Shown here piece by piece: positions 7,366 through 29,925 of a stretch of 39,867 bases of DNA (positions within the stretch are counted from its first letter, which is position 1; every line of letters begins with the position of its first letter). The notes under the pieces were generated by a model that saw nothing but the letters and a program-made list of their open reading frames with translations, was not told where the DNA came from and searched no databases. Origin of the DNA: a virus (lineage: Duplodnaviria > Heunggongvirae > Uroviricota > Caudoviricetes); IMG/VR virus record IMGVR_UViG_2579778622_000004; one strand, 5' to 3'. Position numbers and translations under genes: made by a program.

Positions 7366-7973
7366 TCTTTAAGAGTCATCTGCGGAATACCTCCCATTTT
7401 CCCGCATGAAACAACGTCAATCCGTTCACGCGCAGACTGGAATAACAAAGGCAGGTGACTTAGATTTTTTGGCGTGCCGCCGGAGTGAACGCGTGGTTCT
7501 TGTGTAGCGTCAACGCCCACCAGGGCGACATGTTTGAATCCGATATGGAAAGCCAGGTTCAGAGCACCATATGCACTATTGCCGCTGGCAATTTCATTCT
7601 CATCTTCGCAAAGTCCGAAATGTGCGGACCAGCGCCACGCCCACCACTCGGGAGAATTCGTATTTTTTGGCTCCATGCCACGTTCAGCCACACGACGGAA
7701 GCACAGAACGCCGTCTCTGACTTCACGTTCTTTAACATCGGGTAGTGCCATGCAATAACAAACACCACGGCGACGGCGGCCACGACCAACGCGCCGCATA
7801 TTGTCTGGCGATGGATCAAGTGTGAAAAAATAAGAAGCGCGGTACAGCCAGTCGATGGCCCCATTGACCGCTATAATCGGCACTCCGCGCGGCGCAACAA
7901 AGTTTGCGGCGCTTGGGCCACTGCCGACGATAATAACGCGATCACTGCCTCTAAATTTATTCTTGGGAAACAT
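7347..7973 (-). CDS. GT42 (CstII)-like / DUF115-like nucleotide-sugar transferase-fold protein, paralogue A
   Basis: [13 protein letters not shown]...IIAVNGAI and [24 protein letters not shown] resemble CstII-type N-terminal Rossmann motif. Confidence 0.45.
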
Positions 7974-8533
7974 TGAATTGCACTGCTCCTACTTGCATTC
8001 AAAATATGTAAATCTGCGTGTTTTTTGCGGGTATCCAGGAACTGCTGTTGCCATTTTGAAATAGACACCTGCGTTGGATTCCGTAGGGCTTGAGGGTGCG
8101 CGCCATGCCAATGAAGGCCGTTTTGCAGAGAACAGTCATAGCCGACTAATACCACTACTTCAGCCCCTGATTCAGCAGCCAGACTGATAGCCTGCGCGCC
8201 GCTATTTACCCCTTCCGCCGGTCCACAATATCGCCTGTACTCCAACGAAAATGATTTCGCCGCCGCCAGGTTGGCTGTCACTTTGCGGAATCTCCCTCCC
8301 GGTATGGTGGATCCGTATTGCTTCCACCATGACAAATCACCGGCGTATAAGGCATAAATGTCATCGAACATCTGCCAGGAATTGTTAACCGCGATGATTG
8401 AACAGCCAGTTTTTTCTATAGCAGCACAGTCCTCACGAGTGAGTGACGGACCGCTACCGACACAAAAAACAGTCCTAGTCGCCCTGGGTGGTATGTTCAT
8501 TCTCAGCTGCAAATTCAGCCTCCAGGCGAGCAT
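7871..8533 (-). CDS. GT42 (CstII)-like / DUF115-like nucleotide-sugar transferase-fold protein, paralogue B
   Basis: VFCVGSGPSLTRED...IIAVNNS and NSGAQAISLAAESGAEVVVLVGYD; paralogous to 7347..7973. Confidence 0.45.
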   Translation of the reverse strand: MLAWRLNLQLRMNIPPRATRTVFCVGSGPSLTREDCAAIEKTGCSIIAVNNSWQMFDDIYALYAGDLSWWKQYGSTIPGGRFRKVTANLAAAKSFSLEYRRYCGPAEGVNSGAQAISLAAESGAEVVVLVGYDCSLQNGLHWHGAHPQALRNPTQVSISKWQQQFLDTRKKHADLHILNASRSSAIQCFPRINLEAVIALLSSAVAQAPQTLLRRAECRL

Positions 8534-25260: not shown

Positions 25261-25281
25261 TGGCCTGAAATGGGATCAACA

Positions 25282-25386
25282 TTGACTATACGCGATTTTA
25301 TGTTGACTGTGCACGATTTATTGTTGACTGCACGCGATTTATTGTTGACTATACGCGACAGAAACATTGACTGTACGCGATTTTAG
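25282..25386 (+). repeat. Five direct approx 21-bp iterons (TTGACTRTRCRCGA core) upstream of repA
   Basis: Repeats begin at 25282, 25303, 25324, 25345, 25367. Confidence 0.8.
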
Positions 25387-25460
25387 AGCCTGACTATTCA
25401 CAGTTGTTGATAACTGCAATCCAGATGACGCCAGGCCGCGACACATATGGAGAAACCACG

Positions 25461-26345
25461 ATGCCGGAAGAAAATAAAGGCTTCCTTAGCGTTGAAGAAG
25501 TTGCAGGAAATACAGGAGAAATCCACAGCCTGAAACCCAATAACAATAGCACTATACAACCCATCGCTTTGTTGCGCTTAGGTGTGTTTGTGCCAACCTT
25601 AAAATCTACCAATGTGGCACTACGTCGCGGATCGTCAGTTACTACAAACACAACGAACGCAACCGAAGAACTATCAAGCCTCAAAATTGTTGAGCAGGAA
25701 GGCTATGAGGGAATTGAAATACATGGTCCACGCCTGGATATGGATACTGATTTTAAGGTGTGGGTGGGCATAACCTCCGCGTTGTTTGACTACGCACCTG
25801 ATGATGACGGCATAATCACCCTGCCATTCTCCGAGTTTGCCGATCGATGCGGCTATCCACGTAAGCGCCTTTCAAAGGCGTTCCGTAAAAGTATTGATGA
25901 CTCTCTGACACGCATTCAGCAGACAGTTGTCAAATTCCGCTTCCCGGCGGCAAAAGGTCATCTCAATAACATTAACGTCAACTTGTTGGCATATAGCAGC
26001 CTGAATACCGAGCTTGATGTTATCGAGATCCAGCCGCAGAAACAGCTATCTGAACTTTACTATGTTGACTATAAGCGAATCCTGAAGCTGAAGATGCTGG
26101 ATAAGCTCGGGCGCAAAGAGACGGCCAAGGTACTGTATACATTCTTTGAGGCTCTACCTGCCAACCCGGCACCTGTCAGCATTGAGCGCCTTAGAGCAAG
26201 GCTTAATCTCAAATCATCCGTTAGCGTGCAAAATAGCGTTATCAGAAAAGCCATGAAAGATTTGGAAGCTATTGAATATCTTAAATTTTCAGAGATAAAA
26301 AACGGCAGGAAAATCGGCTTCCAGATCCATAAGCGCAATCCATAA
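25461..26345 (+). CDS. repA: Iteron-binding plasmid replication initiator RepA
   Basis: ATG at 25461 with GGAGA RBS (track starts 25404); flanked by iteron arrays; QPIALLRLGVFVP segment. Confidence 0.75.
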   Translation: MPEENKGFLSVEEVAGNTGEIHSLKPNNNSTIQPIALLRLGVFVPTLKSTNVALRRGSSVTTNTTNATEELSSLKIVEQEGYEGIEIHGPRLDMDTDFKVWVGITSALFDYAPDDDGIITLPFSEFADRCGYPRKRLSKAFRKSIDDSLTRIQQTVVKFRFPAAKGHLNNINVNLLAYSSLNTELDVIEIQPQKQLSELYYVDYKRILKLKMLDKLGRKETAKVLYTFFEALPANPAPVSIERLRARLNLKSSVSVQNSVIRKAMKDLEAIEYLKFSEIKNGRKIGFQIHKRNP

Positions 26346-26347
26346 TA

Positions 26348-26603
26348 TTGACTATATGCGATAGCGAGAAGTTGACTATAGGCGACATTCGTTGACGCTG
26401 GTGGATTTTTGCTGGCGTCAATATTCTGCAAGCTGCTATTGAGATGGCTTTTAGGGTCATTTCATCGCGTATAGTCAACGTTTCTCCCGACAATATCTTA
26501 CATAGTCGATTTTTGGTGGAGTTAAATCGACTACAGTCAACTTTTGACTGTAGTCACATCGCGCATAGTCAACTATTCACATTAACTTTCGCGCATAGTC
26601 AAC
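26348..26603. repeat. incA-like iteron array in both orientations downstream of repA
   Basis: TTGACTATATGCGA, TTGACTATAGGCGA forward; TCGCGTATAGTCAAC, TCGCGCATAGTCAAC (x2) reverse; palindromic GACTACAGTCAACTTTTGACTGTAGTC. Confidence 0.75.
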
Positions 26604-26637
26604 ATTTGCGCGGTTCTCATCAAGCAGTGGTATTGAT

Positions 26638-27447
26638 ATGCAAGAAGAGAAACAACACTACCTCTACGTTCTGGTGCCGGAGAACGGAGATACTTTTAAA
26701 ATCGGCATTTCATGTGGTCCATTGGCACGGTTTAAAGGGCTACAAGTGAATCCCGATTTTGCGCTTTCACGGGTCTATCGTGGTACGCGTTTGGCAATAG
26801 TTAATCTTGAGCGGGCTTTACACGCAACCTTTTTCCCCTGGAATGCGCCGTGGGAGAAAAGCGCCGGTGGCGGGCATACTGAATGGTTTACACGAGAGTG
26901 TCTTGATAAGGTTTTGGCTCATATCGAATATCTAAATGATATGTGGGGAGGGATTCTCGAGCGGATTAAGTCGAATGATTTACTTCAGCGTCCAGTAGAT
27001 GCTGCTCGCTCTTTCGAAAAAGAACTGGATGTTACTTCTATCGTGACTTTCAAAGATGACGCAGGAATGAGGGATGTGGCTTATGTCTCCATATCTGGCT
27101 ATGAACCTGACGCGATCCGCGCTCAATGTGAATTGCTGAAAGCGATGTTTACGCTTCGGACTAAATATCCCTGGGAGACAGGGCGGGTGTGCTTCCCTAT
27201 GGAAGAGTTAACCGCCACCATTGATTCCCAGCTTTACCACGATAATCCAGAGAAGTTTTTTAGCCTTTTAGCCGGTAATGGGCTTAACTGTGTGTCCGGA
27301 CTGGGGCGAAGTAGAATCCAACATGCCTCGCTCTTCGGTCCCTTCTTTTACGATCGAAACGGGTGCTTTGAGGCTGAACTTCCGGCGCTTACGCGTGCTA
27401 TAGATACTATCGATTTCGAACGATTATTCGCAGCTCTTAACAAATAA
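26638..27447 (+). CDS. GIY-YIG superfamily (T5orf172-like) domain protein with unknown C-terminal domain
   Basis: N-terminal HYLYVLV...FKIGIS...ARFKGL...GGGHTEWF matches GIY/YIG/R/E spacing of T5orf172-type domains; 269 aa. Confidence 0.5.
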   Translation: MQEEKQHYLYVLVPENGDTFKIGISCGPLARFKGLQVNPDFALSRVYRGTRLAIVNLERALHATFFPWNAPWEKSAGGGHTEWFTRECLDKVLAHIEYLNDMWGGILERIKSNDLLQRPVDAARSFEKELDVTSIVTFKDDAGMRDVAYVSISGYEPDAIRAQCELLKAMFTLRTKYPWETGRVCFPMEELTATIDSQLYHDNPEKFFSLLAGNGLNCVSGLGRSRIQHASLFGPFFYDRNGCFEAELPALTRAIDTIDFERLFAALNK

Positions 27448-27454
27448 CACTGAT

Positions 27455-27475
27455 GCCCCTGAACGGGGCTTTTTT
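27455..27475 (+). terminator. Rho-independent terminator
   Basis: GCCCC tgaac GGGGC followed by TTTTTT. Confidence 0.7.
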
Positions 27476-27564
27476 GTGCCCTCCTTGCAACTCTCTATCG
27501 TGCAAAATGAACCAAACATGCAGAGAATGCTATGTACAAGCATCTACGCATACATTATTATTTT

Positions 27565-27603
27565 ATGCAGCATTTTTAATTAAATTCAAAAATACAGCAT
27601 AAA
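27565..27603. promoter_or_regulatory. par promoter/operator imperfect palindrome
   Basis: ATGCAGCATTTTTAATT / AATTCAAAAATACAGCAT inverted repeat just upstream of parA. Confidence 0.6.
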
Positions 27604-27615
27604 GGATGACTTTCG

Positions 27616-28812
27616 ATGAGTGATTCCAGCCAGCTTCACAAGGTTGCTCAAAGAGCAAACAGAATGCTCAATGTTCTGACTGAACAAGTACAGTTGCAAA
27701 AGGATGAGCTACACGCGAACGAGTTTTACCAGGTCTATGCGAAAGCGGCACTGGCAAAACTGCCTCTACTGACTCGAGCGAACGTTGACTATGCCGTAAG
27801 TGAAATGGAAGAAAAGGGTTATGTTTTCGATAAACGCCCTGCTGGCTCTTCAATGAAATATGCGATGTCAATTCAGAACATCATTGACATATATGAACAT
27901 CGCGGAGTGCCAAAATACCGGGATCGCTACAGCGAAGCGTATGTGATTTTCATCTCCAATCTTAAAGGCGGTGTGTCAAAAACTGTATCGACGGTTTCTC
28001 TGGCGCATGCAATGCGTGCTCACCCTCATCTTCTGATGGAAGATTTAAGGATTCTGGTTATTGACCTTGATCCGCAATCTTCAGCAACGATGTTTTTAAG
28101 CCATAAACACTCTATTGGTATCGTAAACGCAACATCTGCACAGGCTATGTTGCAGAATGTAAGCCGTGAAGAGCTGTTAGAGGAGTTTATTGTTCCTTCT
28201 GTTGTACCTGGGGTTGACGTTATGCCTGCGTCGATTGACGATGCCTTTATTGCATCCGATTGGAGAGAGCTGTGCAATGAGCATCTACCGGGTCAGAACA
28301 TCCATGCTGTCCTGAAAGAAAATGTGATTGATAAGCTGAAGAGCGATTATGACTTTATCCTCGTTGATAGTGGTCCTCACCTTGACGCCTTCCTGAAAAA
28401 TGCTTTGGCCTCGGCCAATATACTGTTTACACCTCTGCCGCCAGCAACTGTCGATTTCCACTCATCGCTTAAATACGTTGCCCGCCTTCCTGAGTTGGTG
28501 AAACTCATTTCGGATGAAGGCTGCGAGTGCCAGCTTGCGACTAACATTGGTTTTATGTCCAAGTTGAGTAACAAGGCAGACCATAAGTATTGCCATAGCC
28601 TGGCTAAAGAAGTGTTCGGTGGGGATATGCTCGATGTCGTCCTCCCTCGCCTTGACGGTTTTGAACGTTGCGGCGAGTCTTTTGACACTGTTATTTCAGC
28701 TAACCCGGCAACGTATGTTGGTAGTGCTGATGCATTGAAGAACGCGCGAATTGCCGCGGAAGATTTTGCTAAAGCAGTTTTTGACCGTATTGAATTTATC
28801 AGATCTAACTGA
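27616..28812 (+). CDS. parA: Partition ATPase ParA (type Ia, with N-terminal DNA-binding extension)
   Basis: 398 aa; deviant Walker A SNLKGGVSKT; length and N-terminus match what I recall of P1 ParA. Confidence 0.9.
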   Translation: MSDSSQLHKVAQRANRMLNVLTEQVQLQKDELHANEFYQVYAKAALAKLPLLTRANVDYAVSEMEEKGYVFDKRPAGSSMKYAMSIQNIIDIYEHRGVPKYRDRYSEAYVIFISNLKGGVSKTVSTVSLAHAMRAHPHLLMEDLRILVIDLDPQSSATMFLSHKHSIGIVNATSAQAMLQNVSREELLEEFIVPSVVPGVDVMPASIDDAFIASDWRELCNEHLPGQNIHAVLKENVIDKLKSDYDFILVDSGPHLDAFLKNALASANILFTPLPPATVDFHSSLKYVARLPELVKLISDEGCECQLATNIGFMSKLSNKADHKYCHSLAKEVFGGDMLDVVLPRLDGFERCGESFDTVISANPATYVGSADALKNARIAAEDFAKAVFDRIEFIRSN

Positions 28813-28828
28813 GGAGTAAGAAACCCCC

Positions 28829-29830
28829 ATGTCAAAGAAAAACAGACCAACAATTGGGCGAACCCTTAATCCTTCAATATTAAGCGGATTTGATAGTTCT
28901 TCAGCCTCTGGCGATCGAATCGAGCAGGTATTCAAGTTATCAACTGGTCGCCAGGCCACATTTATCGAGGAGATAATTCCTCCGAACCAGGTAGAAAGCG
29001 ATACCTTTATTGATCAGCATAACAACGGGCGTGACCAGGCATCTCTTACGCCAAAATCATTAAAAAGTATCCGAAGCACTATTAAGCATCAGCAATTTTA
29101 CCCTGCAATAGGTGTTAGACGGGCTACAGGGAAAATTGAAATTTTGGATGGTTCCCGGCGTCGAGCTTCTGCCATCTTAGAGAACGTAGGGTTGCGGGTT
29201 TTAGTCACGGACCAGGAGATCAGCGTTCAGGAAGCGCAAAATTTAGCGAAAGACGTTCAGACAGCATTGCAGCACAGCATTCGAGAAATAGGTCTGCGTT
29301 TGATGCGAATGAAAAATGATGGGATGAGTCAGAAGGATATTGCAGCCAAAGAAGGACTGTCTCAGGCGAAGGTCACGCGTGCTCTCCAGGCAGCGAGTGC
29401 TCCGGAAGAATTAGTCGCCCTTTTCCCTGTGCAGTCGGAATTAACCTTTTCGGACTACAAAACGCTTTGTGCTGTTGGCGACGAAATGGGGAACAAGAAT
29501 TTAGAGTTTGATCAGCTTATTCAAAACATATCCCCGGAAATAAACGACATCTTATCCATTGAAGAAATGGCCGAAGATGAAGTTAAAAATAAAATCCTGC
29601 GCTTGATAACAAAGGAAGCCTCACTACTCACGGATAAAGGTTCTAAAGATAAGTCCGTAGTTACTGAATTATGGAAATTTGAGGACAAGGATCGCTTTGC
29701 AAGGAAGCGCGTGAAAGGCCGTGCATTTTCTTATGAGTTTAATCGACTTTCAAAAGAGCTACAGGAAGAACTCGACAGGATGATTGGGCATATCCTTAGA
29801 AAGAGCCTCGATAAAAAGCCGAAGCCTTAA
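28829..29830 (+). CDS. parB: Partition centromere-binding protein ParB
   Basis: 333 aa; ParB box GSRRRAS; length matches recalled P1 ParB. Confidence 0.9.
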   Translation: MSKKNRPTIGRTLNPSILSGFDSSSASGDRIEQVFKLSTGRQATFIEEIIPPNQVESDTFIDQHNNGRDQASLTPKSLKSIRSTIKHQQFYPAIGVRRATGKIEILDGSRRRASAILENVGLRVLVTDQEISVQEAQNLAKDVQTALQHSIREIGLRLMRMKNDGMSQKDIAAKEGLSQAKVTRALQAASAPEELVALFPVQSELTFSDYKTLCAVGDEMGNKNLEFDQLIQNISPEINDILSIEEMAEDEVKNKILRLITKEASLLTDKGSKDKSVVTELWKFEDKDRFARKRVKGRAFSYEFNRLSKELQEELDRMIGHILRKSLDKKPKP

Positions 29831-29834
29831 ACTT

Positions 29835-29925
29835 TCGCCATTCAAATTTCACTGTTAACCTACTGTTTTTAAAGTAAATCAATCTAAAATTTCAAGGTGA
29901 AATCGCCACGATTTCACCTTGGATT
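29835..29925. promoter_or_regulatory. parS-like centromere
   Basis: TCGCCA hexamers at 29835 and 29903, ATTTCAC heptamers at 29846 and 29911, inverted GTGAAAT at 29897, AT-rich spacer between. Confidence 0.7.

Follow-up and report, generated by a model that had tools for sequence, protein, structure and literature searches.

The experimentally characterised prokaryotic T5orf172 proteins that our literature search returned are all homing endonucleases or derivatives that act in conflicts between mobile elements, namely the homing endonuclease genes (HEGs) of phage ICP1, the nuclease Odn, and CapR (PMC8263062, PMC10448857). The ICP1 T5orf172 genes are free-standing homing endonucleases that lie beside essential genes, at the boundaries of exchanged segments (PMC10448857). 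Odn (Gp88 of ICP1) combines a T5orf172 nuclease with a RepA_N domain that shares 42% identity with the PLE satellite's RepA; it cleaves the satellite's origin in an iteron-dependent manner, and PLEs escape it by changing their iterons or exchanging the replicon module (PMC8263062). CapR, encoded by PLE, is a T5orf172 derivative that has been domesticated as a repressor. Here, we describe a computational analysis of a T5orf172 gene in the replicon of a P1-like phage-plasmid, the 39,867-nucleotide (nt) IMG/VR record IMGVR_UViG_2579778622_000004 (the whole of which we call the window). This open reading frame (ORF) begins with an ATG, occupies 26638..27447 on the + strand, encodes 269 amino acids (aa), and lies between the iterons that follow repA and the partition promoter, Ppar. 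What is new is that the gene occupies a conserved slot in four diverged P1-family lineages, at the edge of a cassette that is swapped between them, and that it is dispensable and evolves fast; also new are its predicted acidic second domain, which resembles the WH1 winged-helix domain of Rep initiators, and the existence of true T5orf172-Rep3 fusions among its relatives.

The window belongs to the SJ46/RCS47/JL22 subgroup of P1-like phage-plasmids, and the 4.6 kb around the ORF share 98-99% identity with those phages. The gene already bears a generic annotation, as a ‘GIY-YIG nuclease family protein’, and is uncharacterised; our literature search returned brief mentions of the locus and no discussion of the gene. 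Specifically, Venturini et al. 2019 list, without further comment, ‘2 orfs inserted between repA and parA’ in pSvP1 (PMC6906374), and the SJ46 paper notes only that its RepA is 42% identical to P1 RepA (PMC5241659). Because the ORF is intact at 25-44% identity in three other lineages, with a ratio of nonsynonymous to synonymous substitution rates (dN/dS) of 0.31, comparison indicates that it is a real gene and not a chance reading frame. It matches PHROG 2876 end to end (function listed there as unknown), and no NCBIfam profile matches it. A horizontal-transfer signal in its base composition was sought and rejected, as its GC content (47.3%) and third-position GC content (GC3, 44.8%) match those of neighbouring genes, and a search of the window for a second T5orf172 gene, which would have indicated a ‘HEG island’, found none.

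The protein divides into an N-terminal domain (residues 1-105; 26638..26952, + strand), a predicted disordered linker (approximately residues 106-125; 26953..27012, + strand) and a C-terminal domain (approximately residues 126-269; 27013..27444, + strand). Residues 8-85 match the Pfam family T5orf172 (PF10544), a GIY-YIG-superfamily nuclease domain (E = 1.2e-5; 26.2 bits, where the curated cutoff is 20); the same threshold is passed by all three of the diverged full-length relatives described below, and matches of the ORF to MUG113 and Tox-URI2 were sub-threshold. Across 139 homologues of the N-terminal domain, residues Y10, K21, G23, R31, E58 and E82 never vary, and conservation of H62 is 94%. 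Y10, G23, R31 and E82 belong to the catalytic-type set of the superfamily (first-strand Tyr, second-strand Tyr-x-Gly, helix Arg and downstream Glu). A phmmer search of this domain against the PDB returned nothing useful. The full-length AlphaFold2 model is poor, with a predicted local distance difference test score (pLDDT) of 60.6 and values below 50 at residues 113-130; the N-terminal part gave a tentative match to the GIY-YIG fold of SLX1. From the domain's identity and its catalytic-type residues, we infer that the N-terminal domain is probably an active GIY-YIG-type (T5orf172) endonuclease.

Just downstream of the stop codon is a hairpin that resembles an intrinsic terminator (GCCCC-TGAAC-GGGGC at 27455-27469, with a T-run extending to 27479, + strand), recognised by a terminator scan and in the junction alignment; the element at 27455..27479 is predicted to insulate the ORF from the par operon. 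A first-pass annotation of this DNA had placed a 269-aa ORF with its own terminator between the control iterons and the parA promoter; the ORF is present exactly as claimed, and the terminator corresponds to this hairpin and T-run. That annotation had also described a GIY-YIG/T5orf172-like N-terminus, while allowing that no T5orf172 profile might match, and an uncharacterised C-terminal part. The former is borne out by the above-cutoff PF10544 match and the invariant catalytic-type residues, and the latter agrees with profile searches of Pfam and of PDB sequences, neither of which produced a C-terminal match.

An exhaustive HMMER search of 1.84 billion representative proteins recovered only three full-length relatives, P0004 (44% identity), P0009 (28%) and P0011 (25-30%), along with approximately 160 further proteins that have the N-terminal domain alone in common with the ORF. 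All three full-length relatives occupy the same slot in P1-like backbones, in the order Rep3-type repA, control iterons, ORF, parA, parB and major head gene, and down to 25-30% identity the ORFs are collinear and intact in both domains. The replicons around them differ. One (L003) has an SJ46-like RepA (83% identical to that of the window), the Salmonella loci L004 and L005 combine the ORF with a P1-type RepA (83% identical to P1 RepA) and P1-type iterons, and L006 pairs a third type of RepA with par genes of the P7 type. The iterons of the four lineages fall into three unrelated sequence families, and L004 and L006 show the same layout of direct and inverted control iterons built from unrelated iteron sequences. 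As a side observation, the gene call of P0004 had been extended 41 codons upstream into the L003 iteron array (8001-8123), where translation of the iterons yields its ‘AYSQH’ repeats; the ATG at L003 8124 is the conserved start.

P1-type and P7-type replicons have no gene in the slot. In P1 (NC_005856) the last incA iteron is separated from Ppar by 190 bp of filler that is unique and contains no coding sequence, and P7-type IncY plasmids have approximately 115 bp between incA and the start of parA, which encode no protein. Among PLSDB records, 401 carry the ORF at 80% identity or more, 392 carry most of the repA-ORF module, and 144 have the contiguous empty P1 junction. No relative of the ORF was found in more than 4,600 RepFIB-family plasmids, whose RepA proteins are 44-49% identical to that of the window. 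These comparisons indicate that one slot in P1-family replicons recurrently contains the gene, with P1 and P7 as the empty cases, and that the gene family is confined to P1-family phage-plasmids; such confinement would suit a gene that spreads by recombination during phage co-infection. The first-pass annotation's expectation that an iteron replicon has no gene here is borne out in P1. Its picture of a ‘wedged’ gene, as a one-off insertion, does not fit, since the gene is a fixed part of its cassette with homologues in three other lineages. Conservation at this position throughout the P1 family as a known backbone gene, which the annotation had named as the contrary case, is approached, but the P1 and P7 types are empty and the gene's function is not known. 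An ORF remnant in the empty P1 slot was considered and rejected, because tblastn of the four ORFs against the P1 locus was negative and the filler has no larger parent gene. Separately, approximately 170 bp of the P1 slot (L001 3827-3999) are found only in the 144 P1-type PLSDB plasmids, and a 65-codon open frame in the slot continues out of the last incA iteron as far as a TAA just before Ppar; searches revealed no larger gene from which it could derive.

To define the unit with which the gene travels, we mapped the ends of homology in pairwise comparisons. Alignment of the window with the P1 locus by megablast and blastn shows that homology stops at approximately 25264, just before the first origin iteron, and resumes at approximately 27514, just upstream of Ppar; with 25300-29900 as query, the megablast alignments to P1 records start at query position 2215-2218. 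The 2.25-kb replicon-specific cassette between these points (25265..27513, + strand) replaces the oriR iterons, repA and incA of P1, and contains origin iterons, repA, control iterons, the ORF and its terminator. Likewise, L003 and L004 have backbones that are 94-98% identical and between which the origin-to-ORF segment is swapped (L004 6655-8945), with the right-hand breakpoint approximately 63-84 bp past the ORF stop. Between L004 and P1, homology ends right after the last incA iteron and restarts just before Ppar, enclosing 1,018 bp with the ORF in L004 versus 214 bp in P1. Thus there is a presence/absence polymorphism at one site between homologous flanks, occupied in L004 and empty in P1 and in the P7 type, and the right-hand breakpoints of the three comparisons (window/P1, L003/L004 and L004/P1) all lie approximately 65-110 bp past the stop. 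In each comparison, the alignments place the ORF at the right edge of the exchanged unit. The terminator and approximately 50 bp after it are homologous between the window (27455-27510), which has P1-type par, and L006 (6000-6055), which has P7-type par, and part of this flank (ACGTGCAA) also occurs in the empty P7-type allele (L008 1146-1185); the 3′ flank of the ORF may be older than the split between par types.

Selection was analysed in 44 IMG/VR loci that carry the gene. The dN/dS of the ORF (0.33 in the N-terminal domain and 0.27 in the C-terminal domain) compares with 0.02 for repA and 0.002 for parA. In 8 of 43 copies the ORF is disrupted, through no fewer than four independent events: S112* (five copies), W68*, Q228* (in a copy within a 103,445-bp contig), and one copy in which foreign sequence replaces the ORF after nt 294. 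The last of these (L049, from 3795 onward) continues in unrelated sequence, which could reflect either a deletion junction or one end of an insertion element. There is also a cluster of truncated proteins, without the nuclease domain, with 229 member sequences. Because of these independent inactivations and the truncated cluster, the gene is dispensable for plasmid maintenance, yet it is under some purifying selection; because it is dispensable, its role would lie in conflict and evolution rather than in basic maintenance. The same measurements bear on the idea that the ORF is a decaying relic without present function, kept only by the essential replicon and partition elements that flank it. 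Such a relic could account for the roughly 19% of copies that are disrupted and for a dN/dS 15 to 150 times that of the neighbouring genes, but it does not account for ORFs that stay intact and collinear in both domains across lineages at 25-30% identity, for a dN/dS well below 1 in both domains, or for the roughly 80% of copies that are intact. We therefore consider a relic very unlikely.

The second domain is an orphan in sequence. Residues ~106-269 have no match in Pfam or PDB sequences, and the C-terminal domains of the four lineages, searched against Pfam at E up to 10, gave no hit and so no match to Rep3_N (PF01051). Because the full-length AlphaFold2 model was poor, we modelled this domain separately from a four-lineage alignment. 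The result had a pLDDT of 74.6 and a predicted template modelling (pTM) score of 0.73, with the first 20 residues below a pLDDT of 50. A Foldseek search with this model put Rep WH1 families on top (best probability 0.90, E 0.027, template modelling (TM) scores 0.36-0.42), and Rep WH1 domains were the best structural matches for two independent models and with two search programs, over approximately 100 aligned residues. These scores are modest and in the twilight range; they are suggestive of a WH1-like domain with a predicted alpha/beta winged-helix fold. The domain also diverges quickly. Between the window and L003, the RepA proteins are 83% identical (WH1 82%, WH2 85%) and the iterons belong to the same family; the ORFs are 44% identical overall, with 65% in the N-terminal domain and 31% in the C-terminal domain. 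Because of this 31% identity against 83% for RepA and unchanged iterons, the C-terminal domain appears untied to, and in this comparison does not track, its own RepA or its own iterons. Divergence far faster than that of its own RepA and iterons would be expected if it tracks an external, changing target.

A connection between T5orf172 and replication initiators also appears among the relatives of the N-terminal domain. In the 148 closest T5orf172 relatives, the sole recurrent partner domains are Rep3_N (WH1), present in four, and Rep3_C (WH2), present in three. The true fusions, P0124, P0048, P0015 and P0156, begin with T5orf172 and end with Rep3 WH1/WH2 (Pfam E 1e-7 to 1e-13), and one of them, P0156 (L053 7001-8005), lies on a phage-like contig beside recA-like and phage metallopeptidase genes. 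The Rep3 parts were identified with Pfam; a hidden Markov model built from five P1-family RepAs was too narrow and missed them. By analogy, these fusions look like counterparts of Odn built on Rep_3 instead of RepA_N, and they count in favour of the WH1-like assignment of the C-terminal domain.

Our tentative reading, which we hold to be plausible though somewhat short of probable, is that the gene encodes a selfish or competitive conflict nuclease that acts among P1-family phage-plasmids, either homing-endonuclease-like or Odn-like, rather than a part of the replication machinery. It draws on the precedents in the T5orf172 family, the preserved catalytic-type residues, the location at the cassette edge, the occupied and empty states of one site, dispensability and repeated decay, rapid divergence of the second domain, its WH1-like model together with the T5orf172-Rep3 fusions, and confinement to phage-plasmids. 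The N-terminal domain would be a GIY-YIG-type endonuclease and the C-terminal domain a fast-evolving, Rep-WH1-like targeting or docking module. When superinfection or co-infection brings two related phage-plasmids into one cell, the nuclease would cleave the rival's DNA at or close to the replicon/par region. This would lead either to loss of the rival or to its repair with the nuclease-encoding element as template, in which case the nuclease gene and the neighbouring ori-repA-iteron cassette would be copied into it. The element's own DNA is presumed immune because it would not contain the target, and expression is presumed to be low and governed by whether RepA occupies the iterons next to the start codon. 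A more specific version, which we regard as unlikely, is a weapon whose transcription is gated by RepA bound to the neighbouring control iterons and whose WH1-like domain docks not on naked DNA but on the rival's initiator or on initiator-iteron complexes, so that the nuclease would cut the origins of rivals that share its par. Were this so, an initiator-guided origin-directed nuclease would enforce exclusion and drive wholesale swapping of ori-repA-iteron cassettes; to our knowledge, none has been described for plasmids.

The first-pass annotation had offered a homing endonuclease, an exclusion nuclease or an anti-defence factor as candidate roles, and nothing was found in support of the last. 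A related alternative is that the gene is anti-phage defence cargo, an abortive-infection-type effector in which the C-terminal domain senses a component of an invading phage and releases the nuclease. Defence genes are common cargo of phage-plasmids, defence systems often couple a sensor to a nuclease, and a fast-evolving C-terminal domain, relaxed selection and frequent loss are typical of such genes. However, PADLOC-DB v2 models gave 0 families against the ORF at E up to 1, and a known defence system was rejected on the grounds that neither PADLOC nor NCBIfam yielded a match. Moreover, the gene sits in one fixed slot inside the replicon in four lineages, not in a variable cargo hotspot, and it is absent from other plasmid types, although defence genes usually change contexts. 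This makes a role in anti-phage defence improbable.

Several observations weigh against the conflict nuclease that we favour. At the catalytic end, the second tyrosine of the GIY-YIG motif is a phenylalanine (F20) in 77% of the homologues, which is the norm of the subfamily. At the targeting end, the C-terminal domain is acidic in all four lineages (isoelectric point, pI, 4.8-5.1, ~4.9 in the window; net charge -4 to -9), whereas basic values are found for the RepAs (pI 9.3-9.5) and for the Rep3 parts of the true fusions (pI 8-10), a contrast that argues against a classical DNA-binding targeting domain. When the C-terminal profile was compared by hhalign with five P1-family RepAs the probability was 0.2%, and against the Rep3-like tails of the true fusions and P0156 it was below 1%; the ORF search of 1.84 billion representatives likewise recovered no Rep-like proteins. 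Because the domain has no sequence similarity to any RepA, there is no candidate target that can be named. An Odn-style chimera containing a RepA-derived domain, at the level of sequence, was accordingly rejected, with all hhalign probabilities below 1%. The distribution of the gene adds to this. Window-type RepA (at 90% identity or more) occurs in 396 PLSDB records, its linkage to the ORF is approximately 1:1, and no empty SJ46-type allele was seen in PLSDB (396 RepA versus 401 ORF records), so that the sporadic occurrence among close relatives that is expected of a free-standing homing endonuclease gene is not what we see. Deep lineage-specific divergence combined with near-1:1 linkage to repA looks like long vertical association, not recent homing. 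A homing or exclusion nuclease is still the best fit to the evidence, but the repA linkage and the lack of an empty SJ46-type allele sit poorly with it.

The acidity of the C-terminal domain would fit a different proposal, that the protein is a RepA-interacting accessory factor whose WH1-like domain pairs with the basic WH1 of RepA, much as Rep WH1 domains associate in dimers and in handcuffing. Recruited in this way to RepA-iteron complexes, it would modulate initiation, handcuffing or copy number. The structural matches are to Rep WH1, which includes a dimerisation interface, and the domain is acidic where RepA is basic; in addition, the control iterons of four lineages reach almost to the start codon, and the gene is inherited with ori, repA and iterons as one cassette. 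Set against these points, the gene is dispensable and stop mutants are common, and P1-type, P7-type and more than 4,600 RepFIB-family plasmids function without it. The C-terminal domain falls to 31% identity between the window and L003, where RepA WH1 is 82% identical and the iterons are the same, and a regulator would need no invariant nuclease catalytic-type residues. We judge this proposal unlikely as well.

The surroundings of the ORF bear on how it could be expressed. Five origin iterons with a TTGACTRYRCGCGA core and 21-22 bp spacing (25280..25380, + strand; repeat families D1-D3 and iteron list) precede repA (25461..26345, + strand), which encodes a Rep3-type initiator of 294 aa, counted from the ATG annotated in RCS47, with Pfam matches to Rep3_C and Rep3_N. 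Directly past the repA stop, repeat analysis finds two control iterons that point the same way as those of the origin (26346..26385, + strand), and these are followed by four inverted, incA-like control iterons (26463..26608, - strand; family D4, inverted pairs I1-I25). The iteron core 9-mer has 19 matches, compared with 7.1 +/- 2.9 in shuffles, well in excess of chance, which marks the iterons as real. By eye, a PrepA-like TTGACT-18-TACACT overlaps the last origin iteron. The RepA of the window is 42% identical to P1 RepA, and its identity to RepFIB-family initiators was obtained by tblastn against PLSDB. The ATG of the ORF is 30 nt past the end of the last iteron, and the corresponding distance from the last inverted iteron is 20-34 nt in all four lineages. 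Because the gap from the last iteron to the ATG is too short for a promoter in every lineage, it is reasonable to place a putative ORF promoter within the iteron array, coupled to RepA occupancy. A scan found no sigma-70-like promoter on the + strand inside the array and no terminator between repA and the ORF, so read-through from the autoregulated PrepA is equally possible; candidates for an ORF promoter picked by eye are weak and not conserved across lineages. Either route, an array promoter or PrepA read-through, would link expression of the ORF to RepA.

Downstream, Ppar (TGTACA-17-TATTAT, 27533..27561, + strand) was located by mapping the P1 annotation through a 99% alignment and was matched by the promoter scan; it is identical to the annotated par promoter/operator region of P1. 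It is followed by parA (398 aa) and parB (333 aa; together 27616..29830, + strand), whose products are 100% and 99% identical to P1 ParA and ParB. The gene thus lies between two autoregulated control regions, a position that would suit a domesticated, catalytically silent regulator of, for example, par or repA expression, which binds DNA or protein. CapR provides a precedent for the domestication of T5orf172 as a repressor, and the replacement of the second GIY-YIG tyrosine by Phe points the same way. However, the catalytic-type Tyr, Arg and Glu show no variation, P1 has no such gene although its Ppar and parA are 99-100% identical to those here, and the protein is acidic overall; a silent regulator is therefore highly improbable.

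Three further sequence features of this replicon deserve mention. An iteron-like 16-mer, TGTTGACTATAAGCGA, lies inside repA at 26063-26078, matches an origin iteron at 94%, and is kept at the equivalent place in the repA of L003 (~7611-7626; repA 83% identical); it could be a RepA-binding site. An exact copy of the iteron-core 9-mer, ATAGTCAAC, lies inside parA on the - strand (27784-27792), where, as a single 9-mer, it may have arisen by chance. An imperfect hairpin, TTGACGC...GCGTCAA, which contains TTGACGCTGGTGGATTTT (26392-26421), lies between the direct control iterons and the inverted ones; its left half is kept in L003 (~7917-7935), and it might serve as a weak terminator for repA or as a binding site for a protein.

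P1-like phage-plasmid replicons are mosaic. Those with the present replicon are common in E. coli and Salmonella (approximately 400 PLSDB records), and SJ46, RCS47 and JL22 carry extended-spectrum beta-lactamase genes. A nuclease gene at the edge of the exchanged cassette is a candidate driver of cassette swapping and of competition between co-resident phage-plasmids and, if it acts in this way, would carry the Odn/homing-endonuclease theme over from a Vibrio phage and its satellite to the plasmid replicons of enterobacteria. Should the acidic WH1-like domain bind RepA instead, the protein would be a new kind of iteron-replicon accessory factor. The practical consequences are modest, the gene serving as a lineage marker for the SJ46-type replicon.

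The locus can be compared with several known systems. In its arrangement it follows the repA-incA-par region of P1 and P7 (IncY), with the same order of origin iterons, repA, control iterons in two orientations, Ppar, parA and parB; it differs in that P1 and P7 have no protein in the slot, and that the RepA of the window is only 42% identical to that of P1 and its iterons are unrelated. The best structural matches of the C-terminal domain are the WH1 domains of pPS10 RepA, F RepE, R6K pi, Vibrio RctB and MSBI1.176 Rep, but, unlike these, the domain is acidic and has no accompanying WH2, no Pfam Rep3_N match, and hhalign probabilities below 1%.

The phage homing endonucleases (the ICP1 T5orf172 HEGs, the T4 Seg proteins and I-TevI) share with the ORF a nuclease superfamily, an intergenic slot between essential genes, a position at the edge of exchanged DNA, presence/absence polymorphism, frequent inactivation, and a weak ribosome-binding site. 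In contrast to them, the ORF is not sporadic in its main lineage, where its linkage to repA is close to 1:1 and no empty cognate allele was seen, and it does not carry their usual basic DNA-binding modules (zinc-finger or CapR-type), having instead an acidic C-terminal domain with no match among Pfam or PDB sequences. Odn and its relatives, Gp5 and the proteins of coliphages Inny and Muut (PMC8263062, PMC10448857), join a T5orf172 nuclease to an initiator-type domain, and the ORF may be alike in this, its C-terminal domain being WH1-like according to the model. Odn, too, is carried by a mobile element that competes with related or parasitic elements, and its targeting domain shifts with the swapping of replicon modules, much as the C-terminal domain of the ORF evolves fast. 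The difference is that Odn's targeting domain has recognisable sequence homology to an initiator, which the C-terminal domain of the ORF (hhalign 0.2%) does not.

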